A stretch of DNA of 56,075 nucleotides from Candidatus Heimdallarchaeota archaeon (GTDB taxonomy: Archaea > Asgardarchaeota > Heimdallarchaeia > JABLTI01), in the NCBI GenBank assembly GCA_019056785.1, contig DXJV01000045.1:1-56075 (forward strand), given 5' to 3'. Position numbers and translations under genes: made by a program. Position 1 is the stretch's first letter. Every line of letters starts with the position of its first letter. The notes beneath the pieces were generated by a model, which was given only the letters and a program-made list of their open reading frames with translations, made no database searches and was not told the origin of the DNA. Of this stretch, positions 11,065 to 54,680 are shown in pieces.

Positions 11065-12060
11065 TTACTTCCACACTTCTTTGAAAATACGCATGAAATT
11101 ACCATGACAGATTTTGTTTATATCTTCCAGAGAATAGTCTCTTTTTTCTAATTCTTTCACAAGAAGATTAAAACCTGTTACATCTTTTACCGAGTCCGGC
11201 ACAAGTGTTCCATCAAAGTCACTTCCAAAGCCAACATAATCCGGTCCCACCAAATTCACCACATGATCAATATGATCAATAATTTTTGTGAAAGGTGTTT
11301 TGGCATCACGTGAGCAATCTTCTCGTAAGAACATATTTCCAAAATTAATGCCGACCATACCATTAATGTCAGCAATGGCTTTTATCATGTCATCTGTGAG
11401 ATTTCGGACATGGGGTGAAAGAACCCTGCATGACGAATGAGAAGCAATGAGTGGTTTGTTTGTTACATCAATGGCATCCCAAAAACTTTTATCAGAAAGA
11501 TGAGACACATCAACAATAACACCAAGTTTATTTGCTTCGTGGATCAATTCTTTTCCTTCAGCAGTCAAGCCTCGGGTATCCTCGGGAGTATTTGGATCGA
11601 AAGACGACCCTGTGCCAAAGAGATTTTCGTCTGACCAAGTAATTCCAAAGGAGCGCAAACCTAAGCGATAAAGAACGTGCAGAAGATGGAATTCTGAGTC
11701 GAACCCACCAATCCCTTCGATGTGAAAGATCGCTCCGAGTTTTCCGGAAGTGGCTATTTTTTCTAAATCATCAACTTTTTTCACTAAAACAAGATTGTTT
11801 TTCTTATTTTCAACCAACTCGAGTAACTGTCGTGTTCCTTTTAGGATGTAGTACTGATTTATTCCTGGCCAAATGGCAAAAAACATTGCCAGGACATTTC
11901 CCTCTTTTGCTCTTGGCAAATCTACATGCCCCTTCTCTGAGCGCTCATAAAAAACTCGCCGTTGTTGGGTCAGAGCAAATAAAACATCCGTATGTCCATC
12001 TATGATCATTTTATCTTTCAATTTTATCCCAGGAGCTAATAATTGTTTTTCTATCTTCAT
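11065..12060 (-). CDS. Membrane dipeptidase family (peptidase M19)
   Basis: DGHTD, HIEG, DVSH, ASHS and GSDFDG motifs. Confidence 0.92.
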   Translation of the reverse strand: MKIEKQLLAPGIKLKDKMIIDGHTDVLFALTQQRRVFYERSEKGHVDLPRAKEGNVLAMFFAIWPGINQYYILKGTRQLLELVENKKNNLVLVKKVDDLEKIATSGKLGAIFHIEGIGGFDSEFHLLHVLYRLGLRSFGITWSDENLFGTGSSFDPNTPEDTRGLTAEGKELIHEANKLGVIVDVSHLSDKSFWDAIDVTNKPLIASHSSCRVLSPHVRNLTDDMIKAIADINGMVGINFGNMFLREDCSRDAKTPFTKIIDHIDHVVNLVGPDYVGFGSDFDGTLVPDSVKDVTGFNLLVKELEKRDYSLEDINKICHGNFMRIFKEVWK

Positions 12061-42072: not shown

Positions 42073-43620
42073 TTACAGTCCTAAAGCAGTTGCAGCTTGT
42101 TTTGCGAGGTTCTGGAAAGTATTGGGAATCACTCCTATGACGATCATGAGTATAACTATGACCATCAATGGGATTATGATTTCTATTGGTGTTTCTTTGA
42201 CGTCCTTGAGGTGTTCACCAGCAGGTTTGAACCAGAGTCGTTGTAAAACAATCAAGTAATAGACGACACTCGTCACGCTAGAGAGAAGGAACAATGCAAC
42301 ACCAACATAATATTGCACATTGCCACTACTTACTGCTGCCACTACAATATTGAGTTTACTCCAGAAGCCTGGCAATGGTGGAACACCAGCCAAACTAAGG
42401 AGAGCAATTGTGAAGGCAAAAGTTGTGACAGGCATTTTATGGCCAATACCTTCGAGTTTGTCTAATTCGCGGTCGTGGAACCTGTAGAGAATTGCTCCTG
42501 CGCACAAGAATGCCAGTCCTTTCCCAAGAGCATGAGTAAGAACATGGAAATAGCTACCTTGAACTCCCAGGGTAACGACATCACTATTAATGTTTGTTAA
42601 TGTCATTGATAAGCCGAAGAGAATGAAGCCAACATTAAGGACGGTGGAGAATGCAAGTAGTCGTTTAATGTCTGTTTGTCGTAGCGCCATAAGATTGCCG
42701 ATAACCATTGTTAGAATAGAGACCCAAAGAAGGACGTACCCCACGGCACAGAGGTTTGGTAGAAGGAGAAGACTTGGTCTGAAGAAGGTGGTAAGAGTAT
42801 TAATCATTGCAAACATTCCTGTCATGATAACAACACCGGATAGCATTGCACTAATACCACTTGGCGCAGCGGGGTGTGCATCCGGCAGCCAGGTATGTAG
42901 TGGAACGATTGCTGCTTTTACACCGAAGCCAATGATTAGGGAGATGATGATTATTACATGTACACCAGAGATGCCATTCGTTGCAAGTTTTGTGAAGAGG
43001 GTTGTGCCAATTTCGGCGATGTTTAGAGTACCAGTAACACCATAGAGCAAGCTCATGCCGAAGAGGAGCATCACGCTACCAAAAGCACTCATGAATAAGT
43101 ACTTCACTCCGGCTTCCACAGGCTCAGGCTCGTCCTTTCGGAAGGAGACGAGGATATAACTCGCGATAGACATTCCTTCCCAGAAGATGAAGAGGGTCAA
43201 GAGGTCACCTGCCATGACAACACCGATCATTCCTGCAACTAACAAGAGAAGCAAGAGATAATAGCGGTCAAGGCGATCATCATGGTCCATATAACGGATG
43301 GAATAGATAGCAGTAACTGAACCCAAGATTGTGAAGATGAGGATGAACCACCAGGTCAATTGATCAAGGCGAAAGATTGTGTAAATACCTTTTTCGTAGG
43401 TCTTTGTTCCCAGCACAAGGATCAAATCTTCCGACTTGACGGGGAGAGCATTACCAAAAGCAATGATCAATCCCAACATTGCCAGGAAGCAGATATTGGC
43501 GATGATAGCATAAGTCAGGTTCCAGCCTTGAGACTCTCTTCGAGCAAAACGCCCGAGTAAGCCTATGAGGAGTGCCCCTGCGACTGCAATAATTATTGGG
43601 AGTAGCCAGAATACATTCAT
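42073..43620 (-). CDS. nuoN: Antiporter-like subunit, NuoN/MrpD-like
   Basis: 'FIFWE', 'GVKAAIVPLHTWLPDAH', 'DIKRLLAFS', 'GVPPLPGFWSK'. Confidence 0.8.
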   Translation of the reverse strand: MNVFWLLPIIIAVAGALLIGLLGRFARRESQGWNLTYAIIANICFLAMLGLIIAFGNALPVKSEDLILVLGTKTYEKGIYTIFRLDQLTWWFILIFTILGSVTAIYSIRYMDHDDRLDRYYLLLLLLVAGMIGVVMAGDLLTLFIFWEGMSIASYILVSFRKDEPEPVEAGVKYLFMSAFGSVMLLFGMSLLYGVTGTLNIAEIGTTLFTKLATNGISGVHVIIIISLIIGFGVKAAIVPLHTWLPDAHPAAPSGISAMLSGVVIMTGMFAMINTLTTFFRPSLLLLPNLCAVGYVLLWVSILTMVIGNLMALRQTDIKRLLAFSTVLNVGFILFGLSMTLTNINSDVVTLGVQGSYFHVLTHALGKGLAFLCAGAILYRFHDRELDKLEGIGHKMPVTTFAFTIALLSLAGVPPLPGFWSKLNIVVAAVSSGNVQYYVGVALFLLSSVTSVVYYLIVLQRLWFKPAGEHLKDVKETPIEIIIPLMVIVILMIVIGVIPNTFQNLAKQAATALGL

Positions 43621-43636
43621 TGTCGTTTCTTTCCTC

Positions 43637-45154
43637 CTAAGTTATTCCAAAGATTTTCGCAACTGCGTCAGTTACGAAGGTTAGGACACTGTTTGGTAAG
43701 ATACCAATAATGAAAGTCAAAAGTGCGAGGACCACAAGTGGTGCCCACATGTAGGGACTTGGGTCTTTGACATCTTTGAATTCTTCTTTTTCTGGTCCGA
43801 GAAATACATTCTTCATGAAGAGAAGAGTGTAAGTCGCTGTCAAGGCTGTTGAAAGGACTGCCATAAAGATTGCAATAATACCTAATGGATTTCCGGAGGC
43901 TAAGCCACCTTCGAAGATAATCCATTCACTCATGAATCCAGCAAGGGGTGGAAGACCGCTTAAACTCAATGCTGCAATCAATGCAACAATTGCGGTTATT
44001 GGCATTTTATAGGCCAACCCGCCGAGTTGTTTTATATCACGCCCTTTGTGATGCCCTATCTGGGTCATGAGAATGCCGGCAACCATAAAGAGGGTGCCTT
44101 TCGCAAGCGCATGGCTAACAATGTGGAACATCGACCCTGTTGCACCAAATGCGGTGAAAGTTCCAAGTCCGAAGAAGATGTAGCCCATTTGTGAGATGGA
44201 TGAATATGCAAACAGCCGTTTCGTGTCTTTCTGTGCTAATGCCATGATTCCGCCGTAGACCATAGTAAAGACTGCCAGTCCGACGAGTACCCATGTGAAA
44301 GTAACATTGCTTCCCATATCCAATATATCTGTGCAGATCCTGAGGATTGCATAAGCAGCTGTTTCGATCATCACACCACTAAGAATAGCACTGATTGGTG
44401 TTGGTGCTTCTCCGTGGGTGTCTGGAAGCCAGCTATGAAGTGGGAAGATTGCCATTTTCACTGCAAAGCCAAGCAAGAAGAGAATTGTTAGAACAAGTGT
44501 GACTGTCTTTGATACAGCAGTCATGTTGATGTTCGCAATAAGGAAGCTTCCACTTGCAGAGCCATAAGCCCAGAGGCCACCAATACCGATAAGGATAGCC
44601 ATTGCACCTACATGGGTAAACATGAAGTACTTGAATGCTATCTTCACAGAGTTTGGTTTTGAACCCCATTTTGCAATGATGAAGTAGGAGGGTATAAGCA
44701 TTAGTTCCCAGAAGACGTAGAATTGAACAAGATCGCCTGCAAGGATAACGCCAACCATCCCAGCAATATAGAGAACTAAAAGAGCATAATATGCCCCTTG
44801 ATTCTCTTCCTTCTTCATATAACCAAAGCTATACATTACTGCAGCTAAGGAAAGAATGAAGATAATTGCGGCAATGGGGAAGCTTAGGCTGTCAGCTATC
44901 AGTTTGAAGCCAATTGTTACATTCTTCGATCCAAGATTGAAATTAATCCATTTATTCCAACCTTCAGAGTGAATGTTGCCTAAACCATCATTAAGGACAT
45001 CCCCAAGAGACAGGGCAAAGAATACAGCGCTGATAAGCACAAAGATGAAGGCCGACCATTTCGCTGCGTGGTCATTCCACTTCCCAAGGAAGAAGACAAT
45101 GATAGGCGCAAGTAAGAGAATTGCAATGGAAATGATAAGTGTAAAATTGAACAT
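43637..45154 (-). CDS. nuoM: Antiporter-like subunit, NuoM-like
   Basis: 'FYVFWELMLIPSY', 'VKMAIFPLHSWLPDTHGEAP', 'AYSSISQMG', 'GFMSE'. Confidence 0.85.
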   Translation of the reverse strand: MFNFTLIISIAILLLAPIIVFFLGKWNDHAAKWSAFIFVLISAVFFALSLGDVLNDGLGNIHSEGWNKWINFNLGSKNVTIGFKLIADSLSFPIAAIIFILSLAAVMYSFGYMKKEENQGAYYALLVLYIAGMVGVILAGDLVQFYVFWELMLIPSYFIIAKWGSKPNSVKIAFKYFMFTHVGAMAILIGIGGLWAYGSASGSFLIANINMTAVSKTVTLVLTILFLLGFAVKMAIFPLHSWLPDTHGEAPTPISAILSGVMIETAAYAILRICTDILDMGSNVTFTWVLVGLAVFTMVYGGIMALAQKDTKRLFAYSSISQMGYIFFGLGTFTAFGATGSMFHIVSHALAKGTLFMVAGILMTQIGHHKGRDIKQLGGLAYKMPITAIVALIAALSLSGLPPLAGFMSEWIIFEGGLASGNPLGIIAIFMAVLSTALTATYTLLFMKNVFLGPEKEEFKDVKDPSPYMWAPLVVLALLTFIIGILPNSVLTFVTDAVAKIFGIT

Positions 45155-45170
45155 TGTTTTCCTTTGCCTC

Positions 45171-47306
45171 CTAAATCGTGAATAATAATACTGCCAATAG
45201 GATTATTGCTCCTAGCAGCATATAGATGAAGTTTACCGATAGAATCCCTGTCTGGGTTTTTCTGACAACTTCACCCGTCTTCATTGTTCCTGAAGCGATG
45301 ACATAATTTGTGCGGTCAATCACTTTCAAGTCGAAGTATTCGTAAGTTAGTTCTGCGAAGCGCTTGAATTTCCGAAGACACCAATAAATGGCGGTATTCA
45401 TGTACCATCGTTTGTACAGGAAGGTGTTAATTCCTTTGAGGAATTTGCTCTTCTCGATCATTGCTCTGGAATCCCACTTTCTTGTCATGAAGAAGAATAT
45501 TGCAGGGATACCTCCAGCAGCAAGAATTCCAAGAGTAATCCAAAATGTCGGAGGTTCGAAGCCAAATGTATGGCTCAAGAAGTGCCCATAAGGAACGATT
45601 GTTTCTTCCACAGTGACAGACATTGCAGCAAACCAATTGTTCTTCGTGACAAAGTTTTCCACGAGTGGCGAAAGGAAGCCAAGAACAACGGTCCCGGCCA
45701 TTAAAATCCACAACGGAAGCCATAAAGTGACACCCGGTTTGTGAAGATGGCCATGATTCTCTTTTTCCACCTCTTTCACATGCTCGGTTTTTTCTCCGAA
45801 GAAGCTCCAACCGAGGAAGCGAATGGTGTAAAAGATGGTCATAATTGCTGCTACAGCTGCAAATGTAAAGAAGACCCAACCCATTGGATTGTGCTCATGA
45901 GTTGCAAGTTCCCAACTGACGCCGAAAACGCTTTCTTTGCTGAAGAACCCACCTAACGGGGGAACACCGGCAAGAGAAAGACCACCAATGAGCATCGGCC
46001 AGAAGACTTTTGGCATATCTTTTCGAAGCCCACCCATTTCATCGACATATTTCGTATGCACAGTATGAATAATTGCTCCAGCAGATAAGAACAACAGTGC
46101 CTTAAAGACTGCGTGGGAAAGCATATGGAAGGAACCGGCAAAATAGCCTACGACTTCAAATGCCCCATGGCCATTGTCTATTGGTGCGATTAACCCACCA
46201 GCACCAAGACCGAGGAACATATAGCCTAATTGTGAGATTGTGCTGAAAGCGAGGATCTTTTTGAGTTCCGTTGCTGACATTCCCATTGTTGCCGCCATGA
46301 AAGCAGTAAAGGCACCGATCATTCCGACAACAATGAAATAATACTGCAAGATATCATAGTGCAATTCGTGTAATCCCATGTACCACATCGGGAAGGTTCG
46401 GACAACCATATACACACCAGCTTTCACCATTGCAGCAGCATGAATGAGGGCTGAAACGGTTGTTGGACCGGCCATTGCTTCTGGGAGCCAGAACTGGAGT
46501 GGGAATTGTGCTGATTTGCCAATTGATCCTCCGAAGATCAGGAGAGCAGTTAGCAAGAGGACATTGTTGTTCTTCAAAGTGGTAATCCAGGTAAGATCAC
46601 TCATCAATTCTTTGTAGTTTACAGTCTTTGCAAACCAGAAGAGGATGAGAATTCCTGTTAGCATCATTACATCACCAATTCTGGTTGTAATGAATGCTTT
46701 CAAGCCTGCATGAGAATTATAGTCGCCTTCTGTTTCTTCCTTAATGGTGAATTCTCGTGGGTCTTGTTTGTTCTTCTTTGTAAAGAAGTAGCCAATTAGT
46801 GCATAGGAACAGAATCCCACAATCTCCCAGCCAACAAATGATTGGAAGAAGTTATTGGCCATAACAAGAAAGACCATTCCACCAATGAATAGCTGCATCA
46901 AAAACCAATAACGGTTTAGATGCTTGTCGCCTTTCATGTAGCCAACGCCAAAAATCATAATCAGCATTCCTACACCACTGGCGAAAGAGGCAATCATCAC
47001 AGTTAGTGGGTCGATTAGCACACCAAACTGGATTGCCCATTGTCCTTGTATCGGCATAAACCAGTAGTTTGCAATAATCCATTCGTAGCCGGAATCGCCT
47101 GTATAAACATCGACAACTAGGAGAATGCTGAAGATGAAAGCAAGAAACGCTGTTGCAGTTGCCGTCCAATCGCGGATACCGAGAAGAACATTCTTTGCTT
47201 TTCCGTCTTTTAATTTGTTGGCAAGAAAGCCAATGAGCGGAGCAATGAGTGCCCCTGCAAACGGTATCGCCCAGTTAAGAATCGCTGCTTCTTTTAAGAG
47301 TACCAT
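45171..47306 (-). CDS. nuoL: Antiporter-like subunit, NuoL-like, with C-terminal lateral helix
   Basis: 'GWEIVGFCSY', 'KSAQFPLQFWLPEAMAGPTTVSALIH', 'STISQLGY', 'FFSKE', 'DLKVID...RKTQTG' lateral helix. Confidence 0.9.
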   Translation of the reverse strand: MVLLKEAAILNWAIPFAGALIAPLIGFLANKLKDGKAKNVLLGIRDWTATATAFLAFIFSILLVVDVYTGDSGYEWIIANYWFMPIQGQWAIQFGVLIDPLTVMIASFASGVGMLIMIFGVGYMKGDKHLNRYWFLMQLFIGGMVFLVMANNFFQSFVGWEIVGFCSYALIGYFFTKKNKQDPREFTIKEETEGDYNSHAGLKAFITTRIGDVMMLTGILILFWFAKTVNYKELMSDLTWITTLKNNNVLLLTALLIFGGSIGKSAQFPLQFWLPEAMAGPTTVSALIHAAAMVKAGVYMVVRTFPMWYMGLHELHYDILQYYFIVVGMIGAFTAFMAATMGMSATELKKILAFSTISQLGYMFLGLGAGGLIAPIDNGHGAFEVVGYFAGSFHMLSHAVFKALLFLSAGAIIHTVHTKYVDEMGGLRKDMPKVFWPMLIGGLSLAGVPPLGGFFSKESVFGVSWELATHEHNPMGWVFFTFAAVAAIMTIFYTIRFLGWSFFGEKTEHVKEVEKENHGHLHKPGVTLWLPLWILMAGTVVLGFLSPLVENFVTKNNWFAAMSVTVEETIVPYGHFLSHTFGFEPPTFWITLGILAAGGIPAIFFFMTRKWDSRAMIEKSKFLKGINTFLYKRWYMNTAIYWCLRKFKRFAELTYEYFDLKVIDRTNYVIASGTMKTGEVVRKTQTGILSVNFIYMLLGAIILLAVLLFTI

Positions 47307-47321
47307 TTCTCATTCACTCTC

Positions 47322-47663
47322 CTAATATTTCAGGCTGTTCAATCTTTGAACGTTCAGGGAGCCATACATTCGATAGGCTTGAATTATCAAAGCCAAGGCA
47401 ACACCTGCTACACATCCTCCGACACAGATGCTGAGAATCACAACTGCGTGTGGGAGAGGATCAACTACTGCGCTCGTACTAAAGATATTAGAGAAGGTTA
47501 TGAAATTCAAATGCGCTGCGTCAAGCAATAACTCTATAGCAATTAGGAACTTGATCATGTTTTGCTTTGAAGCAAAGGCATAAGCTCCAATCACTAAGAG
47601 CAGTGCAGAGAACGCCAGTACGATATAGATGTTAGTAAAGGGTAAGGAAATTGTAATAGCCAT
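47322..47663 (-). CDS. nuoK: NuoK-like subunit
   Basis: Three TM helices, 'NMIKFLIAIELL', C-terminal 'LNSLKY'. Confidence 0.85.
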   Translation of the reverse strand: MAITISLPFTNIYIVLAFSALLLVIGAYAFASKQNMIKFLIAIELLLDAAHLNFITFSNIFSTSAVVDPLPHAVVILSICVGGCVAGVALALIIQAYRMYGSLNVQRLNSLKY

Positions 47664-48070
47664 TACGTTTCTTCCTCCTTGAGGTCTTCGGCATCCTTTC
47701 GTTCCAGGATAACGAATTTATCTGTTTCACACATTTCTGTTCTGAATTCAGTACATTGTTCTTCCATTCCTTTGACGATAGTAGCTGCGCCTTCAGATGC
47801 AATGAATAACAAAATACCAACAATAATTATGTCGATACCTTTCGCATCCCAAAGGACATACCCCACTGCTCGTCCGACATCCCGAAGGGTTCCATTAACA
47901 ATGTATGGATGATCAACACGTGTATCATCTCCTGAATCATCGACTCGCAAGCCATTTGTGTTTCCCAGATCGTTGAAATCCCAGAGACCGTAGAGCAGGA
48001 AGCCATACAAGCCCAGCGCAAGGACAATAGCGCCACTTGCAATGAGAATTTGTTTTGTCATTCGTTTCAT
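47663..48070 (-). CDS. Small membrane subunit, NuoJ C-terminal half-like
   Basis: TM-loop-'VGYVLW...DIIIVGILLFIA..GA' pattern; position between J(N) and K; overlapping start/stop codons. Confidence 0.6.
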   Translation of the reverse strand: MKRMTKQILIASGAIVLALGLYGFLLYGLWDFNDLGNTNGLRVDDSGDDTRVDHPYIVNGTLRDVGRAVGYVLWDAKGIDIIIVGILLFIASEGAATIVKGMEEQCTEFRTEMCETDKFVILERKDAEDLKEEET

Positions 48071-48375
48071 GACGAAGCCTCCTCAGTTGGTTCTGGAATG
48101 ATTTTATCGAGCTCCTCAACGGGTTCGCCACTTTCGAACCGCTCAGTTAAAGCCACTGTGGAGATAAGTAAAACTGTCACAGCGCCGCCGTAAACCATGA
48201 GCTGGAAAAGAGCAACCCACGGAGCATTGAGGATCCAGAAAACACCCGCTAATGCAATGCTCAAAATAGCCAGGCTAATTGAAGCATAAATCAGGTCTCG
48301 TAATTCTACGGCAAACACCGCAGCAATGACCACGATTATTAGCAAGATTATCAACAAAATTTGATTTGCGTCCAT
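48067..48375 (-). CDS. nuoJ: NuoJ N-terminal half-like subunit
   Basis: 'LNAPWVALFQLMVYGGAVTVL' NuoJ TM3 signature. Confidence 0.85.
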   Translation of the reverse strand: MDANQILLIILLIIVVIAAVFAVELRDLIYASISLAILSIALAGVFWILNAPWVALFQLMVYGGAVTVLLISTVALTERFESGEPVEELDKIIPEPTEEASS

Positions 48376-48410
48376 ATTTTCACATCCTTATTTTCACTCT
48401 CGTGTCGCTC

Positions 48411-48815
48411 TTAGCCTTCCTCCTGTTGTTCCTTCGATTCTGAAGGTTTTGTTTCTTTGGAATAGATGATCATTTCGTCGCGACCAAATGCAGAAAGCTC
48501 GATGTAATCTGTGAGGAACAAGGCATCATAGCGGCATGCTTCCTCGCACAGTCCACAGAAAATGCATTCCCCAAGGTTGATAACCGGTCGTTTCCCGGTT
48601 TTCGTCACTTCCGAGGGAACCATTTCTATGCACATCGGCGGGCAAGCACGTTCACAAGCTCGGCATCCAGTGCATTTTTCAAGAATAAAATAGTGAGCTC
48701 CTCGAAGCCCTTTCTTTGGCTTGACTCCTTCTTGGAAAGGATAGTCTATTGTTGCTTTCTTCTTTTTGAAAGCATTCCTAAGGGCTTCGCAAATAATTAC
48801 TCCTGGTCGTGGCAT
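48411..48815 (-). CDS. nuoI: NuoI-like 2x[4Fe-4S] subunit
   Basis: CTGCRACERACP and CIFCGLCEEAC; ATG at 48815 directly after the nuoH stop. Confidence 0.9.
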   Translation of the reverse strand: MPRPGVIICEALRNAFKKKKATIDYPFQEGVKPKKGLRGAHYFILEKCTGCRACERACPPMCIEMVPSEVTKTGKRPVINLGECIFCGLCEEACRYDALFLTDYIELSAFGRDEMIIYSKETKPSESKEQQEEG

Positions 48816-48817
48816 TA

Positions 48818-49942
48818 TTAGGTACCTCCTCCTGTCGGAAATAGCCCTTCGAATTTTACCCAAAGGGTGTTGTCCAGCCAGGGAACCCAGAAGATTGAGA
48901 AAATCATCAATCCCAGACTCACGGGAATCAACCATTTCCAAGAGAATTCGAGGAATTGATCGATCCGAATTCGAGCCATCAATGCTCGAAATGTTGACAA
49001 GGCAAGCACTAAGAGTGTCGTTTTTATTGCGAATATTAATACGTAGTATGCCATTCTAATAACGGCAATCCACAAGATCCCATTTGGATTGCTCAGAGAA
49101 GCACTTGATGCTAACCAATCTGCAAAACTTGGGATCCACATTTCCACTCCAATTGGTCCACCAAGGAATAGACTCGTTGCAATTCCTACACTATAAATCA
49201 TTTGTAGGTCTGCGCCCAATCGGAAGAAAGCTAATTTCTTGCCGGAGTATTCAACTTCCCATCCGCCGACGATTTCTGTTTCAGCAACAGGAATGTCAAA
49301 AGGTGTTCGTTCCAATTCTGCTTGTGTAGCCAACAGATAGATTATGAGGAACATGAACATTGGAAGGCTGAACATCACAGGACGGTGGTGCACCATTTGC
49401 CAATTTACTATCCCAGCAACGGACAATTCTCCAGTTCGCATTGCAACTGAAAACATTGCAAGAAGAATTGGTATTTCAAAGCTGAGTAGTTGTGAGGCTG
49501 CACGCATTGTTCCGGGCATTGCAAGTCGGTTTGCTGAGAACCAGCCTGCAAGGAAGATAACCAGTGCAAGTAAAGTAGTCAAGAAGGAAAGAAGCAAGAG
49601 GTCGCCTTCGAAAGAAATGATACCAGTGGTATTAATGATTGGTACAAAGAGAAGCAAAACCAATGGAACAGCCAGTCCAAAAATGGCCATAATGCGCATT
49701 CCCCATTTGTCCGCGGCAGAAGGTTCAATGTCTTCATTTGAGAGTAATTTGATGAAATCCGCCAGCGGTTGAGCAATGCCTTTAAAGCCAGTATGTAATG
49801 GACCAATGCGGTCTTGGAGTGCAGCATAGAACTTTCTGTCCACCCATTCATCAAAAAGTGCAAGTGAAATACAGAAAGCTATTCCGGGGAAAAATAATAT
49901 CCCCAATACTAATAACAACCATTGTGCCCATAAAGCTAACAT
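48818..49942 (-). CDS. nuoH: NuoH/HycD-like membrane subunit
   Basis: 'RKFYAALQDRIGP', 'QPLADFIKLL', 'AELERTPFDIPVAETEIVGG..EYSG', 'RIRIDQ'; TAATG coupling at 49942. Confidence 0.92.
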   Translation of the reverse strand: MLALWAQWLLLVLGILFFPGIAFCISLALFDEWVDRKFYAALQDRIGPLHTGFKGIAQPLADFIKLLSNEDIEPSAADKWGMRIMAIFGLAVPLVLLLFVPIINTTGIISFEGDLLLLSFLTTLLALVIFLAGWFSANRLAMPGTMRAASQLLSFEIPILLAMFSVAMRTGELSVAGIVNWQMVHHRPVMFSLPMFMFLIIYLLATQAELERTPFDIPVAETEIVGGWEVEYSGKKLAFFRLGADLQMIYSVGIATSLFLGGPIGVEMWIPSFADWLASSASLSNPNGILWIAVIRMAYYVLIFAIKTTLLVLALSTFRALMARIRIDQFLEFSWKWLIPVSLGLMIFSIFWVPWLDNTLWVKFEGLFPTGGGT

Positions 49943-51216
49943 TATTTCTTCCACCTTTTATTTTTCGCATGCCATTCTCGGCTATACTTTCTGAGTTGGT
50001 CCATTGTTAAATTGTCCACTTTCGCTTTTCGTCGGTCTTTGTTAATTATGGTGATTATTCTATCTTCGCAGCTGAAGCAGGGATCAATCGATGCGAGGGT
50101 AATTGTGGAATCTGCAATATAATCGCCTTTCAGCATTTCTGCAACAGAAAGGATGTTTGCCAATGTAGGCGTGGTAATTTTTAATCGATAGGGTTTGTTA
50201 GTATTATTGGACCACAGGTAGTGAATCAATTCTCCACGAGGTGCTTCTGTACGGGAAAGTACATGAGCCTCAGGAACCTTTCGTGGCGGCTTAATAAAGA
50301 CCGGTCCGTCAGGGAGATTTGCCAGCAGCCATTTAACATATTTACACGCTTCAATGATTTCAAGCAACCGAACTACCACTCGAGAAAAGACATCGTTGGT
50401 ATCATAAGTGATGACATTAAAGATATCTCGCAATGGGCCAGCATAAGCGTTATATGGATCGTCATATCGGATATCAATTTTCAATCCCGATGCACGAGCA
50501 GTTGGACCAACAGCACAGAGTTTTTTCGCGGTACTGGGGAGGAGAACACCAATTCCTTGTGTTCGTAAACGAATAGTGTCCTCTTTGAGGCAAATTTCCG
50601 TGTATCGTTTTAATCGCTTAATAGTTATGTCCATGTACTTGTTCATGCGGGCGATTTGCTTTTCTGAGAGATCCCGTCGTGTTCCGCCAACTTCATTAAT
50701 AGCATAATTCACTCTATTGCCAGAAATGTCCTCTAGGATATCCATTGTCAATTCACGGTCACGCCAGGAAAGCATGAAGAGAGTGTCAAAACCAATTTCA
50801 TGAGCTGCCACGCCAAACCATAGGATGTGGCTGTGAATTCTTTCAAGCTCAGAAACAATTGTTCGAATGTATTCTGCTCGTTCCGGTGGTTTAAAGCCTT
50901 CAAGACCAAGCGCTGTTTCTGTGGCGTTGACAAGTGAAATCGAGTGAATATGACTGCAAATGCCGCAAACACGTTCGACGAGGGTGAGATTTTGCGAATA
51001 AGTCTTCGTTTCAGCAAGTTTTTCAATCCCACGATGTACATAACCAATCCGGGGAGTAGCATTAACAATTACTTCTCCTTCAACTTCTAACAAGAAATGC
51101 TCTGGTTCCTTCAAGGCAGGATGCTGAGGTCCGAGAGGGATTTCCATAGTTCGAGGCATACAAGCGACACAACCAGTTTTCGGCGCGTCTACTTTAACAA
51201 TCTTCTTTTCTGCCAA
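49942..51216 (-). CDS. Group 4 [NiFe]-hydrogenase large subunit (NuoD homolog)
   Basis: GPQHP, HRGIEK, L1 RVCGICSHIH, EAPRGE, L2 DPCFSCEDR followed by a C-terminal extension. Confidence 0.93.
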   Translation of the reverse strand: MAEKKIVKVDAPKTGCVACMPRTMEIPLGPQHPALKEPEHFLLEVEGEVIVNATPRIGYVHRGIEKLAETKTYSQNLTLVERVCGICSHIHSISLVNATETALGLEGFKPPERAEYIRTIVSELERIHSHILWFGVAAHEIGFDTLFMLSWRDRELTMDILEDISGNRVNYAINEVGGTRRDLSEKQIARMNKYMDITIKRLKRYTEICLKEDTIRLRTQGIGVLLPSTAKKLCAVGPTARASGLKIDIRYDDPYNAYAGPLRDIFNVITYDTNDVFSRVVVRLLEIIEACKYVKWLLANLPDGPVFIKPPRKVPEAHVLSRTEAPRGELIHYLWSNNTNKPYRLKITTPTLANILSVAEMLKGDYIADSTITLASIDPCFSCEDRIITIINKDRRKAKVDNLTMDQLRKYSREWHAKNKRWKK

Positions 51217-51227
51217 ACTCTATCACC

Positions 51228-51761
51228 TCATTTCTTCGCCCTAGCAGCTCTTGCTGCTTTTTTGGCGGCCTCTTCCTTCTGTATTTCCAGGAGGAAGTCT
51301 TTACGCAAGGGGTGAACGTTGTCAGGAAAGTCATCAGGCAAGATCAAGCGATCCAATTGAGGATGTCCTTTGAAATAAATCCCCATAAGATCGTGAGTTT
51401 CGCGTTCGAAGAATTGTGCACCTGGAATCACTGAAACGGCAGAAGTAATTTCTGCTTTTTCCCTGTTAGGGGCATCCACCCGTAAATTGAGTGTGATAGC
51501 AGTTTCAGTGCCATGCGGGGGGACAATATCAAAATGGTATACAGCAGCAATCACGCCATCCGGAGTGTCGACACTAGAGATAGCAATGAGATGCCAAGCC
51601 TTCCATTTTTCTTTTGCAAATTTGAAGACCTCGAGATGGTCGGGGTCCTTAACGGTACAGTCGATTCTTCGTGGAAAAGTTGTCTCTATAGAAAGCAGCT
51701 TCTCGCCGAAATGACTTTTTAATGCGTCAACCACTTGTTGTTCTCTTTTTAGATCGCTCAT
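51228..51761 (-). CDS. nuoC: NuoC-like subunit
   Basis: 'FERETHDLMGIYFKGHP..RLILPDD....PLRKDF'. Confidence 0.9.
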   Translation of the reverse strand: MSDLKREQQVVDALKSHFGEKLLSIETTFPRRIDCTVKDPDHLEVFKFAKEKWKAWHLIAISSVDTPDGVIAAVYHFDIVPPHGTETAITLNLRVDAPNREKAEITSAVSVIPGAQFFERETHDLMGIYFKGHPQLDRLILPDDFPDNVHPLRKDFLLEIQKEEAAKKAARAARAKK

Positions 51762-52291
51762 TCTGTTGTAGCAACCTCCTTCTTTTTATCAAGGGCCTCT
51801 AATTGATTCCGCTTCAAATCAATGTTTGAAGGGTCAATTACAGGTGTTTCAAGTCCTTGTAATTTCGCTAGCAACTGAGCAATCCCGAAAATTATCGCCT
51901 CAGGTTTGGGCGGACAACCCGGAATATATACGTCGACGGGGATGACAGTATCAATTCCGAGGTTCGGAATATAACTGTGCCTAAAAATTCCTCCTGAGCA
52001 AGCGCATGCGCCTACTGCGACGACGAATTTTGGTTCCGGTGTTTGCTCGTAGAGCAACTTGAGACGACTTTTCATTTGTTGAGTTGCTGGTCCCGTCACC
52101 ACTAACACATCTGCATGACGTGGACTTCCTTGAATCACAATTCCAAAGCGTTCGACATCGTATCGCGGTGTTAAAACGTCTACGACTTCGATATCACATC
52201 CATTGCACCCGCCGGTGTTAATGTGGAGGATCCAAGGTGATTTTACGCGAGACCAAGTAACAATCTTATTGACTATCTTCTTGAGCACCAT
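51758..52291 (-). CDS. Group 4 hydrogenase small subunit (NuoB homolog)
   Basis: GGCNGCDIE (CxxC, hydrogenase type), SPRHAD, GACA, PGCPPKPE. Confidence 0.92.
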   Translation of the reverse strand: MVLKKIVNKIVTWSRVKSPWILHINTGGCNGCDIEVVDVLTPRYDVERFGIVIQGSPRHADVLVVTGPATQQMKSRLKLLYEQTPEPKFVVAVGACACSGGIFRHSYIPNLGIDTVIPVDVYIPGCPPKPEAIIFGIAQLLAKLQGLETPVIDPSNIDLKRNQLEALDKKKEVATTE

Positions 52292-52299
52292 ATTCTATA

Positions 52300-52632
52300 T
52301 CACCTTCGTAATGTAACCACTCCTAATAACCCGATTCCAGCAAATATTGCTGCAATGGCACTAAATTCGAATCCTTGATTTAGTGTGACCATAGCGGTTG
52401 CAAGGACGAATGCTAAAATGTCGAAAATTGTGAAATAAATGGCGAAGATAAACGTGTTGGGGTAGAATTGTGCTTGCCCACTGCTCATCTCTTCCCCACA
52501 AGCGTATGATAAACGCTTTTCTTTCGTGGGGTTTCGAGGGGCAATGGCACGACCAAGGAAGTAAAGTAGTAAAACAGCGACGAGTACCAAACCTATTGCA
52601 ATCCAAAGTATGTACGTTGATTGTATCTCCAT
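52300..52632 (-). CDS. nuoA: NuoA-like subunit
   Basis: TM1, loop 'K..SYACGE', 'FAIYFTIFD', TM3. Confidence 0.85.
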   Translation of the reverse strand: MEIQSTYILWIAIGLVLVAVLLLYFLGRAIAPRNPTKEKRLSYACGEEMSSGQAQFYPNTFIFAIYFTIFDILAFVLATAMVTLNQGFEFSAIAAIFAGIGLLGVVTLRR

Positions 52633-52780
52633 TTTAGATGCATCGCCTAAAATTTGTTGAATTGACTAGTCGTTTCCTTGACTTGAGTAATGGTAAATAA
52701 AAAGCTTTTTGCTTATTTTATTTTCGACTTTAGAAATTAAAGTCGTCTCTAAACGTTTTTCTTGTTTTAGCTTTTACTTT

Positions 52781-52800
52781 AACGGTAAAAAACGGTAAAT
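52781..52800. promoter_or_regulatory. Tandem direct repeat AACGGTAAA with 10-bp period
   Basis: AACGGTAAAA-AACGGTAAAT in the divergent promoter region; related AATGGTAAAT at 52689-52698. Confidence 0.4.
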
Positions 52801-52862
52801 ACATAAATCTCCATTAAATATTAAAAAACAAAAAAATACTTTAGAGTAAAAAAGAGTGGTTT

Positions 52863-53963
52863 TTGAAGGAAAAACTAATGCCAAACAAAAGTCAACAACA
52901 AAAAAAACAGAAATTCTCGGTGTCTCCTGACTTTACTTTGAATGAAGAGTTTGAACCTTTCAATGAACATTATAATGTTTTTGGGCGGATCATGTGGGAT
53001 AAAGAATATATGAACTATCATAAATTCATGTATGACAAGGTTCCTTTAATCATTTCTGACGGGATCCCAGGCTACCGAGAAATTGACCATGCGCTGGCAA
53101 TTGCCTCTTGGACGGTTCATGATTATTTTCGAAGTGCGTTTTCTTGGGAGAAGCTTAACAAACCGGCCAATGTAATGAAGATTCCTGAACCAAAACAATA
53201 TCCAATTGATGAATCGAATATCCAAGAAGTCACACAATATGTAAAAGCAATTGCCAAACTTTTTGGCGCATCACTTGTTGGAATTACTGCTTTTGATCCA
53301 CGATGGGTCTATACAGAGGATCGTGTTGGCACGCCGATTGAACTTCCTGAAGGGTTGACCAACGTTATTGCCATAGCAATTGAAATGGACGCCGACGCAA
53401 TCAGTACCAGCCCCTCTATGACCCAAGGTTTCGCGAATGGGTTGGGGTATTCAAATATGGCGGCGCTTGTTGCGTCCTTAGCAGAATTCATCCGAAAATT
53501 GGGTTATCAAGCAATTCCGAGTGGAAATGATACTGCCCTTTCTATTCCAATTGCCATTCAAGCAGGGTTGGGACAATTAGGGCGAAATGGTTTATTAGTC
53601 ACTCGCCAATTTGGTTCACGCGTCCGTCTCTGTAAAGTCTTCACAGATATGCCTTTACTTCATGATGAACCCGTGGATTTCGGCTTGACTGATTATTGCC
53701 GCCGTTGCAAACGTTGCGCTGAAGCTTGTGAAGTAGACGCAATTTCCTTTGATGAAGAACCATCTTTCAAAAGTTATCCCCCTTCTCAGAACAAAGGAAT
53801 ATTACGATGGACGATCAAAGCGGACCTTTGTTACCAATTCTGGGTAGACAATGGCGGGGAATGTTCCACGTGTATTACCTCGTGCCCATTTAATATGCGC
53901 ACTGCTCAGAGGTATCTCGAACCAGAAAAATTCTGGGAGAAAAAACTCGAGGACAAGGAGTGA
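52863..53963 (+). CDS. rdhA: Reductive dehalogenase-like cobalamin/2x[4Fe-4S] protein (no Tat signal)
   Basis: 'K..AKLFGASLVGIT..D.RWVY', 'FIRKLGYQAIP', 'AGLGQLGRNG', 'GSRVRL..VFTDMPL', CRRCKRCAEAC and C..FW..CSTCITSCPF. Start may be the ATG at 52878. Confidence 0.82.
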   Translation: MKEKLMPNKSQQQKKQKFSVSPDFTLNEEFEPFNEHYNVFGRIMWDKEYMNYHKFMYDKVPLIISDGIPGYREIDHALAIASWTVHDYFRSAFSWEKLNKPANVMKIPEPKQYPIDESNIQEVTQYVKAIAKLFGASLVGITAFDPRWVYTEDRVGTPIELPEGLTNVIAIAIEMDADAISTSPSMTQGFANGLGYSNMAALVASLAEFIRKLGYQAIPSGNDTALSIPIAIQAGLGQLGRNGLLVTRQFGSRVRLCKVFTDMPLLHDEPVDFGLTDYCRRCKRCAEACEVDAISFDEEPSFKSYPPSQNKGILRWTIKADLCYQFWVDNGGECSTCITSCPFNMRTAQRYLEPEKFWEKKLEDKE

Positions 53964-53969
53964 ATTTCC

Positions 53970-54680
53970 ATGGATCAAACTTTAGAGAATGACCTTCAGA
54001 ACCTTAAGACAGTTATTGCAGACGAAAAAGAGGCTCATAAGTTTCTTGTGGAAGAGTTTATACTTACTCGACGAGCTAGTTCAGGGCAACTTGCATGGAA
54101 GCTTGTTTCTGATCCGGAGCTCGATGCTCAATCACTAGCGATTCTCAATGCCCAAATACTCCCATTTGTTCCTGATAAAGACTATCTCCCGTTGTTGTTA
54201 AAATTATATGAGCATCCAAATGCATCTTTTCGCCTTCGACATTTTATCATTCAAAAAATTGGCTGGCGAGGGCAATATGCAAAAAGCGCTATTCCTAAGT
54301 TGCTTGAAATTTTCGAAGGGCCCTTCTTTCGAACTGATGCGGCGATAAGTCTTTTAGAGATAGGGTATAACGAAGTTGACAAAATCATCCCTGTCTTGAT
54401 CGAAAGTTTGGAACGTGAGAAAAACTACTTGATTCGAATGAACGTTGCACGACAATTGGTGAAACATGTAGATAAAATTGACACCATTGTCCCTGCGTTT
54501 ATTAAAGCAATGAAAAAAGACCCGGATTTTCGTGTTCGGCAAAAAATCATTCATTATTGCGGTGAGTACAATATTCAAGAAGCTCTTAAAACCATTGAAC
54601 AATTGCAAACTTCAGATCAACATCCTCTTGTTCGCTCGGTTGCACTTCGTGTTTGTGAAAAGTTAAAACAAACTAAATAA
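53970..54680 (+). CDS. HEAT/PBS-lyase repeat protein
   Basis: Repeats such as 'IPVLIESL.....IRMNVA', 'VPAFIKAM..DPDFRVRQ', 'DQHPLVRSVA'. Confidence 0.82.
   Translation: MDQTLENDLQNLKTVIADEKEAHKFLVEEFILTRRASSGQLAWKLVSDPELDAQSLAILNAQILPFVPDKDYLPLLLKLYEHPNASFRLRHFIIQKIGWRGQYAKSAIPKLLEIFEGPFFRTDAAISLLEIGYNEVDKIIPVLIESLEREKNYLIRMNVARQLVKHVDKIDTIVPAFIKAMKKDPDFRVRQKIIHYCGEYNIQEALKTIEQLQTSDQHPLVRSVALRVCEKLKQTK

Follow-up and report, generated by a model that had tools for sequence, protein, structure and literature searches.

The window analysed here is a stretch of 56,075 nucleotides from Candidatus Heimdallarchaeota archaeon (assembly GCA_019056785.1, contig DXJV01000045.1, positions 1 to 56,075). 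Its minus strand carries, from 52632 to 42073, 12 adjoining and tightly packed open reading frames (ORFs) in the order A-B-C-D-H-I-J1-J2-K-L-M-N, which is the nuo order. Judged from its sequence, this operon very probably encodes a membrane-bound, energy-converting group 4 [NiFe]-hydrogenase, in which a hydrogenase-like redox module is combined with the full set of complex I membrane subunits. The ORFs were assigned to families with Pfam, and J2 was assigned through its alignment to E. coli NuoJ. The operon covers each of the 11 core subunit types of complex I (A, B, C, D, H, I, J, K, L, M, and N), with J split. The redox module is of the hydrogenase type and the membrane arm of the complex I type. 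An earlier note, made from the letters of the window, had described a nuo-type gene order with NuoA and a split J, and had placed the complex between group 4 hydrogenases and complex I; the family assignments bear out the first claim, and the pairing of hydrogenase-type D and B with complex I-type H and L agrees with the second.

The Large Subunit and Its Catalytic Site

The large subunit D (49942..51216, 424 aa; this and all other operon genes lie on the minus strand) is a NuoD homologue with both Complex1_49kDa and NiFeSe_Hases domains. It contains the L1 motif RVCGICSHIH (50944-50973) and the L2 motif DPCFSCEDR (50059-50085), whose four Ni-binding cysteines, C84, C87, C380, and C383, are invariant in 15 homologues with identity down to 53%. 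In E. coli, the HycE tail is cut by HycI after the Arg of the L2 motif. D likewise continues for 38 residues past DPCFSCEDR, and this putative cleaved tail (49945-50058) can be aligned with that of HycE, whereas the NuoD-type proteins compared end precisely at Asp-Arg without a tail. The two Ni-binding motifs and the C-terminal extension reported in the earlier note are therefore both present. Alignment with HycE, HyfG, and NuoCD, all from the annotated E. coli K-12 record, revealed the hydrogenase state at all three diagnostic sites. A Glu-Pro loop (GPQHPALKEP) replaces the quinone-binding His-Gly site (GPNHPSAHGA in NuoCD), and RVCGIC stands at the position of the quinone-binding Tyr (RIEYLG in NuoCD), so that the quinone-site His and Tyr of NuoD are both absent from D in this alignment.

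Comparison with solved proteins and phylogenetic analysis gave the same picture. The solved relatives of D rank as MbhL (274 bits), HycE (264 bits), and then Thermus Nqo4 (208 bits), and D scores under the cut-offs of the two NuoD equivalog models (316 against 360 for NF004739; 287 against 459 for TIGR01962). A tree of 108 rows, built with FastTree only, placed D inside an 85-row clade of Cys-bearing hydrogenases (support 98). Within it, the window's own clade (support 100) sits on a long stem, apart from HycE, HyfG, and NuoCD of E. coli and from the NuoD-like proteins that Heimdallarchaeia encode. D thus does not branch inside NuoD, the placement that the earlier note had named as speaking against a hydrogenase.

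The chief structural alternative is that the complex is no hydrogenase and has retained the cysteines from its ancestor, while serving to reduce quinone, polysulfide, or some other acceptor in the manner of complex I, Fpo, or MBS. The nuo gene order, the NuoH/NdhA-like H subunit, and the 316 bits of D on NF004739 would suit such a reductase. The sub-threshold scores on the NuoD models and the missing quinone-site residues argue against it, and the Ni-ligand cysteines are conserved together with the HycE-like cleavable tail across hundreds of relatives, whereas the MBS-type and NuoD-like proteins of the same class have lost the cysteines and end at Asp-Arg. Moreover, no terminal oxidase was found in the metagenome-assembled genome (MAG; 2.87 Mb on 102 contigs, 82.5% complete), where both COX1 (haem-copper oxidase) and cytochrome bd were looked for. 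Taken together, this alternative is considered extremely improbable.

The N-terminal 22 residues of D (51151-51216) form a clade-specific extension with the sequence GCVAC, and a G-C-x-x-C-(M/I/V)-P motif is conserved there in this Heimdall family. Most of the other homologues compared (about 53-57% identity) do not have the extension. Its Cys motif may provide an additional metal or redox site close to the membrane interface.

Small Subunit and Ferredoxin-Like Subunit

The small subunit B (51758..52291, 177 aa; PF01058, Oxidored_q6) is NuoB/MbhJ-like. Its proximal [4Fe-4S] motif, C29-N-G-C32 (52196-52207), aligns with CNGC of HycG and CNAC of HyfI, and its GACACSGG and PGCPP motifs also align with both proteins. 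E. coli NuoB has CC (SCC) at the CNGC position. The CxxC of B, which is found in MbhJ as well, is thus of the hydrogenase type, as the earlier note had stated, and unlike the tandem CC of NuoB that provides ligands to cluster N2. MbhJ is the best solved relative of B (191 bits), ahead of the complex I subunit PSST (138 bits). The following gene encodes C, a NuoC/30-kDa-like subunit (51228..51761, 177 aa; PF00329, Complex1_30kDa, 97 bits).

Subunit I (48411..48815) is a NuoI-like protein with two Fer4 domains and two CxxCxxCxxxC motifs, and it scores 79 bits on the NuoI model TIGR01971, under the cut-off of 113. Its start is most likely the ATG at 48815, which gives 134 aa, and not the TTG at 48941, because the orthologues are 137-142 aa long. 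This subunit is presumed to be the ferredoxin docking site.

The Membrane Arm

The membrane part begins with A, the first gene of the operon (52300..52632, 110 aa; PF00507, Oxidored_q4, 39 bits), a NuoA-like subunit whose gene sits ahead of B in most related loci. H (48818..49954, 378 aa; PF00146, NADHdh, 247 bits) is NuoH-like, and its solved relatives are NdhA (145), Nqo8 (119), and NuoH (105), with MbsM reaching only 67; no match of H to MbhM or HycD was obtained at E 1e-15 in the solved-protein search. J1 (48067..48375, 102 aa; PF00499, Oxidored_q3, and PF13244, MbhD) corresponds to the first half of NuoJ (transmembrane helices TM1-3) and aligns to residues 1 to about 80 of the E. coli protein. 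J2 (47663..48070, 135 aa) has no Pfam or NCBIfam match. Since it aligns to the C-terminal half of E. coli NuoJ (TM4 and TM5, with an insert in the loop between them), J is regarded as split over two genes, and J2 is kept in every orthologous operon examined. K (47322..47663, 113 aa; PF00420, Oxidored_q2, 72 bits) is NuoK-like and retains the equivalent of Glu36, while the equivalent of Glu72, the second conserved Glu, is replaced (GGCVAG). J2 also ends in a conserved acidic tail, KGMEEQCxEFRTEMCETDKF (47666-47773), with no counterpart in E. coli NuoJ; the second of its two cysteines is invariant in all six orthologues and the first is present in four of the six.

L (45171..47306, 711 aa), M (43637..45154, 505 aa), and N (42073..43620, 515 aa) are antiporter-like subunits of the NuoL, NuoM, and NuoN/MbhH type, respectively, and all carry the Proton_antipo_M domain. 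L aligns end to end with NdhF, Nqo12, and NuoL, and its match to MbhH reaches only 124.5 bits. An AlphaFold2 model of L, built on 14 homologues (pTM, the predicted template modelling score, 0.81), has a single continuous terminal helix at residues 633-710; the long C-terminal helix and the last TM are encoded at about 45174-45470. Residues 654-694 of this helix have a predicted local distance difference test score (pLDDT) below 50, which in such a model would be expected for a helix that needs its partners. In a Foldseek search with the model, the 19 best matches were all NuoL/ND5/NdhF chains, with about 700 columns aligned. The NuoL with a lateral helix proposed in the earlier note is thus supported by alignment, model, and structural search, the helix being in part of low confidence.

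Trees of the antiporter-like subunits were built with FastTree and IQ-TREE (LG+G4). The NuoD-like loci of Heimdallarchaeia consist only of B-C-D-I or A-C-D with no membrane subunits nearby, and E. coli therefore served as the sole named complex I reference. L groups with E. coli NuoL and M with E. coli NuoM (support 99 each), N falls on the NuoN side of a branch with support 97, and HyfB, HyfD, HyfF, and HycC lie outside the clades that hold L, M, and N of the operon. These groupings agree with the three antiporter subunits of the earlier note. Similarity to solved proteins divides the subunits differently: the best relative of N is MbhH (265 bits), and M is related to MbhH (213 bits) and NuoM (189 bits). 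By this measure the complex is a mosaic, with B, D, and N nearest to the membrane-bound hydrogenase (MBH), H and L nearest to complex I, and M between them.

The residues of the proton path are largely preserved. All nine key charged or His residues checked in L are kept (D400 being Glu), and each of the three subunits retains the TM5 Glu, the TM7 Lys, and the Lys or Glu of TM12, with M carrying the NuoM-specific TM12 Glu (E410). The central Lys of TM8 is replaced by Glu in M and by Met in N; some Bathyarchaeia and Borrarchaeum orthologues retain this Lys. Together with the replaced second Glu of K, these unusual substitutions, and the closeness of N and M to MbhH, leave some room for an arm that moves Na+, or partly exchanges Na+ for H+, as has been proposed for MBH and Mrp. 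The other subunits speak for protons: L, H, A, J, and K are complex I-like, and no MrpE/F/G-like (MbhA-C) subunit is found among the 12 operon genes, each of which was assigned to a Nuo subunit type. Involvement of Na+ is therefore rated as rather unlikely.

Electron Input and Genomic Neighborhood

No NuoE/F/G or FpoF gene is found in the roughly 8 kb that follow the operon downstream, or in the 3.4 kb by which the window extends upstream of it, in agreement with the earlier note, and linked NuoE, NuoG, or FpoF is absent from every orthologous operon surveyed. An unlinked NuoF-like (Complex1_51K) gene lies on contig C17 of the MAG (11400-11915, within a 628-aa frame). This gene is the one point in favor of an NADH- or F420-oxidizing module that is encoded elsewhere and docks onto the complex, giving an NAD(P)H-linked hydrogenase and pump. 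Coupling of NADH oxidation to H2 formation with outward pumping is, however, thermodynamically uphill, and besides the lack of linked input genes, the NuoEFG homologues of Asgard archaea were modelled as separate complexes (Appler et al., bioRxiv 10.1101/2024.07.04.601786). A docked module of this kind is accordingly thought to be most unlikely.

The operon is preceded by a 230-bp AT-rich divergent intergenic region (52633..52862), which on reading the sequence is presumed to be its promoter region. The flanking genes, on the opposite strand, encode envelope and sugar enzymes and a Fer4/dehalogenase-like protein. The latter, divergent from nuoA, is a 366-aa Fer4 and reductive-dehalogenase/QueG-like gene followed by a HEAT-repeat gene (52863-54680, plus strand), and its pairing with the operon is kept in two relatives (loci L027 and L132). 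In three loci of the same genus (L025, L129, and L130), a gene for a 427-aa 2x[4Fe-4S] protein lies about 1.5 kb upstream of nuoA on the same strand. It does not occur at that place in the window, and its product could act as an auxiliary partner in electron transfer.

An independent assembly from another study contains a 9585-base contig that spans 43794-53378 with 41 differences (about 99.6% identity) and runs from M to A and into the divergent neighbor. Since the same arrangement is seen there, it is not an assembly artefact. Contigs of three metagenome runs diverge from the window at the same two places inside D (50780-50811), both bordering a conserved HEIGFD stretch; these are probably assembly-graph branches to related strains or paralogues. 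The operon has a higher GC content (0.43-0.46) and GC content at third codon positions (GC3, 0.38-0.47) than the flanking genes (0.34-0.42 and 0.28-0.38, respectively), which may stem from biased codon use in a strongly expressed operon or from a transfer long ago. Recent transfer or mis-binning, also considered in view of the raised GC, was rejected: the orthologous operon has the same flanks in the same genus, so the raised GC does not point to a recent arrival, and independent assemblies bridge the operon and its flanks. The sequence is present in marine-sediment and hydrothermal-vent metagenomes, and the public runs listed as containing it include no RNA run.

Maturation Genes and Other Loci of the Genome

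The earlier note had looked to the rest of the genome for Hyp maturases and a maturation protease. HypA (contig C80), HypB (C72), HypC (C6), and HypE (C66) are present, as are three HycI-type proteases (PF01750) alongside three Cys-bearing large subunits; the protease on contig C65 is the closest of the three to E. coli HycI. HypD and HypF are considered with the energetics below. The result that the note had named as refuting, a complete genome devoid of Hyp maturases, was thus not obtained, although the check is passed only in part. Besides D, the genome encodes two further Cys-bearing [NiFe] large subunits, which are group 3-like in appearance.

Three other loci were examined as the possible real complex I of this genome, and all were rejected: a NuoC gene with a NuoI-B-D fusion that has neither Ni ligands nor a membrane arm (C31), a degenerate NuoD-NuoH pair (C100), and divergent L- and N-like genes (C11). 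At the first (C31:8128-10624, L118), the NuoC gene is followed by a 671-aa NuoI-NuoB-NuoD fusion that ends at Asp-Arg and has a single Cys left in each Ni motif (RICVLD and DNCPADHDR); there are no membrane subunits nearby, and the locus adjoins a glycerol-3-phosphate-dehydrogenase-like gene. The second (C100:18483-20671, L119) has a NuoD-like protein without Ni or quinone motifs beside a weak NuoH-like protein. The third (C11:120584-124106, L135) has the L- and N-like genes with a K-like gene. Together, the C100 and C11 loci look like a second, decayed complex I-like set.

Proposed Mechanism, Direction and Energetics

In the proposed mechanism, reduced ferredoxin would dock on the NuoI-like subunit, and electrons would pass through the two [4Fe-4S] clusters of I and the single cluster of B to the Ni-Fe site of D, where protons would be reduced to H2 in a reaction that is reversible in principle. 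The chemistry at the D/B/H interface would drive ion translocation via H-A-J-K and via N, M, and L, and the long C-terminal helix of L would clamp N, M, and L as in complex I. D would be matured by the Hyp system, with a HycI-type protease removing the 38-residue tail after Arg386. The analysis shows the identities of the subunits, their motifs, the orthology of the parts, their conservation in the family, and a predicted fold of L, with low confidence in its C-terminal helix; the ferredoxin partner, the turnover of H2 and the way in which it runs, and which ions are moved and how many are inferred.

The more likely direction is H2 evolution driven by ferredoxin in a fermenting anaerobe, because neither the CO dehydrogenase/acetyl-CoA synthase complex (CODH/ACS) nor haem-copper oxidase nor cytochrome bd was found; CdhC (CODH/ACS, Wood-Ljungdahl pathway) was searched for in the 82.5%-complete genome without result. 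H2 uptake is a serious rival. In that direction, the complex would be a H2:ferredoxin oxidoreductase driven by the proton-motive force (pmf), whose large arm, with its high H+/2 e- ratio, would allow ferredoxin to be reduced from very low H2. Group 4 enzymes are reversible, and Eha, Ehb, and Ech of methanogens carry out just such H2-driven reduction of ferredoxin at the expense of the pmf. By our estimates, the inward movement of four H+ at 150 mV would supply about 58 kJ, which exceeds the cost of reducing ferredoxin from H2 at 10 Pa (roughly 39 kJ), whereas one H+ would be insufficient. The two group 3-like large subunits could take up or dispose of H2. The missing CODH/ACS counts on the other side, as there is no obvious need for reduced ferredoxin derived from H2, and so does the published reading of related complexes as H2-evolving (Appler et al., bioRxiv 10.1101/2024.07.04.601786). 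Uptake is rated as the less likely of the two directions.

Several points weigh against the operon being an H2-evolving, ion-pumping hydrogenase of the kind proposed. Estimates from textbook potentials give about 17 kJ per 2 e- for the transfer from ferredoxin (-500 mV) to H2 at 1 bar H2, and about 39-45 kJ at 1-10 Pa H2, while moving four H+ against 150 mV costs about 58 kJ; it follows that H2 evolution would not proceed at a complex I-like stoichiometry of 4 H+/2 e-. The conflict could be resolved in three ways, namely by fewer ions moved, by very low H2, or by the reverse, pmf-driven H2:ferredoxin oxidoreductase reaction, and the TM8 substitutions in M and N may bear on the first of them. 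The replacement of the TM8 Lys in M and N and of the second Glu of NuoK also means that the arm may work unlike that of complex I. HypD and HypF were not found in the 82.5%-complete MAG. Among the 11 further genomes of the family, 8 have HypD and 10 have HypF, and in five of them a distance of about 20-25 kb separates the two genes on a single contig, so that one missing contig would explain both gaps. In addition, E. coli is the only named complex I reference in the trees, which were built with fast methods, and the enzyme is known here from genes and models.

Relatives and Distribution

When one genome was scanned for each species, over 550 loci that encode relatives were detected. Eighty of these loci, together with 12 loci from relatives, were annotated with the window's own proteins. 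The large subunits most similar to D (73-92% identity) carry Heimdallarchaeota or Asgard labels; those in the next tier (52-58%) belong to Jord-, Frey-, and Lokiarchaeia, to Thermoplasmatota and Bathyarchaeia, and to bacteria, Omnitrophota among them. The large subunit is a member of a widespread archaeal and bacterial clade near HydDB "4g", a label inferred from the literature on the phyla that cluster together with it. Across many phyla, NuoA, J, K, and two or three antiporter-like subunits accompany this large-subunit clade, which is one of the new findings of this analysis.

Orthologous operons with 76-84% identity, the same order, and the same flanks occur in the genus and the family, and the order A-B-C-D-H-I-J1-J2-K-L-M-N is found in the genus of the window and its sister genus. 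Three other Heimdall families have a related, more distant complex (40-48% identity), mostly with L and N only; two of their loci have a single antiporter-like subunit of 626 aa. Gene order varies further afield: J-K-L-N-A-B-C-D-H-I in Thermoplasmatota, A to I followed by J-K-N-L-M in some Bathyarchaeia, and three antiporter-like genes followed by J-K-A-B-C-D-H-I, with J unsplit, in bacteria. Two of the three bacterial antiporter-like subunits lie outside the NuoL/NuoM clades, one of them weakly beside HyfD (support 88 and 87).

L subunits tend to be longer where there are more antiporters: they measure about 680-712 aa in loci with the full L, M, and N set and about 570-650 aa in those with L and N alone. 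The exceptions are L039, with 628 aa and three antiporters, and L048 (680 aa) and L126 (672 aa), with two. This tendency is in keeping with a lateral helix whose length follows that of the arm.

Comparison With Known Systems

Complexes of this kind are already known: complex I-like hydrogenases of Asgard archaea were described in 2024, as the earlier note had supposed, and the window holds a well-preserved and unusually complete example. In Heimdallarchaeia, group 4 [NiFe]-hydrogenases of subgroups 4j, 4m, 4p, and 4q were reported; they combine a complex I-like architecture with a NuoBCDI arm and a Cys-bearing NuoD, lack NuoEFG, and were predicted to produce H2 in a ferredoxin-driven reaction (Appler et al., bioRxiv 10.1101/2024.07.04.601786). 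The operon of the window comes from the same archaeal class and shares with them the NuoBCDI arm without NuoEFG, the Cys-bearing NuoD, the complex I-like architecture, and the predicted reaction from ferredoxin to H2. The window's family has L, M, and N, whereas the complexes surveyed in the three other Heimdall families mostly have L and N only. A complex I-like [NiFe]-hydrogenase with an HL helix and two antiporters was reported from Frey- and Atabeyarchaeia, where its syntenic block also contains Hdr, a group 3 hydrogenase, and the ATP synthase (Valentin-Alvarado et al., Nat Commun 2024, PMC11291895). The operon of the window differs in having three antiporter-like subunits and in being free-standing and nuo-ordered. 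The large subunits of Jordarchaeia, Freyarchaeota, and Lokiarchaeia are 54-58% identical to D of the window.

Bacterial relatives (Omnitrophota, Cloacimonadota, and others) have been published as "group 4g, Mrp-linked" (e.g., PMC8542988), and HydDB group 4g was found to be polyphyletic (Valentin-Alvarado et al., PMC11291895). The bacterial loci to which we apply this label, by inference from the literature on those phyla, have large subunits of 49-54% identity in the same 85-row clade, and they too have NuoA, J, K, and three antiporter-like subunits beside B-C-D-H-I. They differ in their order (antiporters-J-K-A-B-C-D-H-I), in their unsplit J, and in the two antiporters outside the NuoL/NuoM clades.

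Among systems that have been characterized, two hydrogenases and one group of reductases are the nearest comparisons. MBH of Pyrococcus furiosus is ferredoxin-driven and H2-evolving; it is described with one antiporter-like subunit, MrpE/F/G-like subunits, and no NuoL-type subunit. Its structure (PDB 6CFW) contains the closest solved relatives of D, B, N, and M, but the operon of the window has three antiporter-like subunits and its H is NuoH-like, not MbhM-like. Hyf (hydrogenase 4) and Hyc (formate hydrogenlyase, PDB 7Z0S) of E. coli are not known to have a NuoL-type subunit with a lateral helix. They share with the operon a group 4 large subunit with a homologous cleavable tail and, in Hyf, three antiporter-like subunits, and differ from it in using formate dehydrogenase as input and in lacking annotated NuoA or NuoJ homologues. 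The cyanobacterial NDH-1 and Fpo-like complexes have the same 11 subunit types without NuoEFG, with ferredoxin as the presumed donor, and H and L of the window are closest to the cyanobacterial NdhA and NdhF. NDH-1 and Fpo-like enzymes reduce plastoquinone or another membrane-soluble carrier, and their D is not known to carry Ni-binding cysteines. D of the window, by contrast, keeps the Ni-Fe site and has no quinone ligands, in a comparison made only with E. coli NuoCD.

Implications

As the concept has been published, the gain is incremental. Besides the wide occurrence of NuoA, J, K, and the antiporter-like subunits noted above, what is new is the full L-M-N arm in nuo order in one Heimdall family, and the evidence that L, M, and N are of the NuoL, NuoM, and NuoN type. 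The published statement of a "shorter arm" thus does not hold for every Heimdall lineage. The operon is also a compact, twelve-gene candidate for expression, for structure determination, and for measurement of the ion/electron ratio.

A membrane-bound hydrogenase is widely taken to be the ancestor of complex I, and an enzyme with a live Ni-Fe site and a complete complex I arm is the closest thing to a living intermediate. It is conceivable, though we hold it only tentatively, that a "pre-quinone complex I" survives in this Heimdall family, in some Bathyarchaeia, and in other archaeal relatives, in the form of a working Ni-Fe hydrogenase with the whole proton-pumping arm, its L, M, and N being orthologous to NuoL, NuoM, and NuoN and encoded in nuo order. 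In that case, the complete chassis, together with the lateral helix and the L/M/N differentiation, would be older than the loss of the Ni-Fe site, and the high ion/electron gearing would tie the enzyme to extremely low H2, as in syntrophy, or to pmf-driven H2 uptake. Such enzymes occur in the archaeal group nearest to the eukaryotes, and H2 metabolism is central to models of eukaryogenesis.

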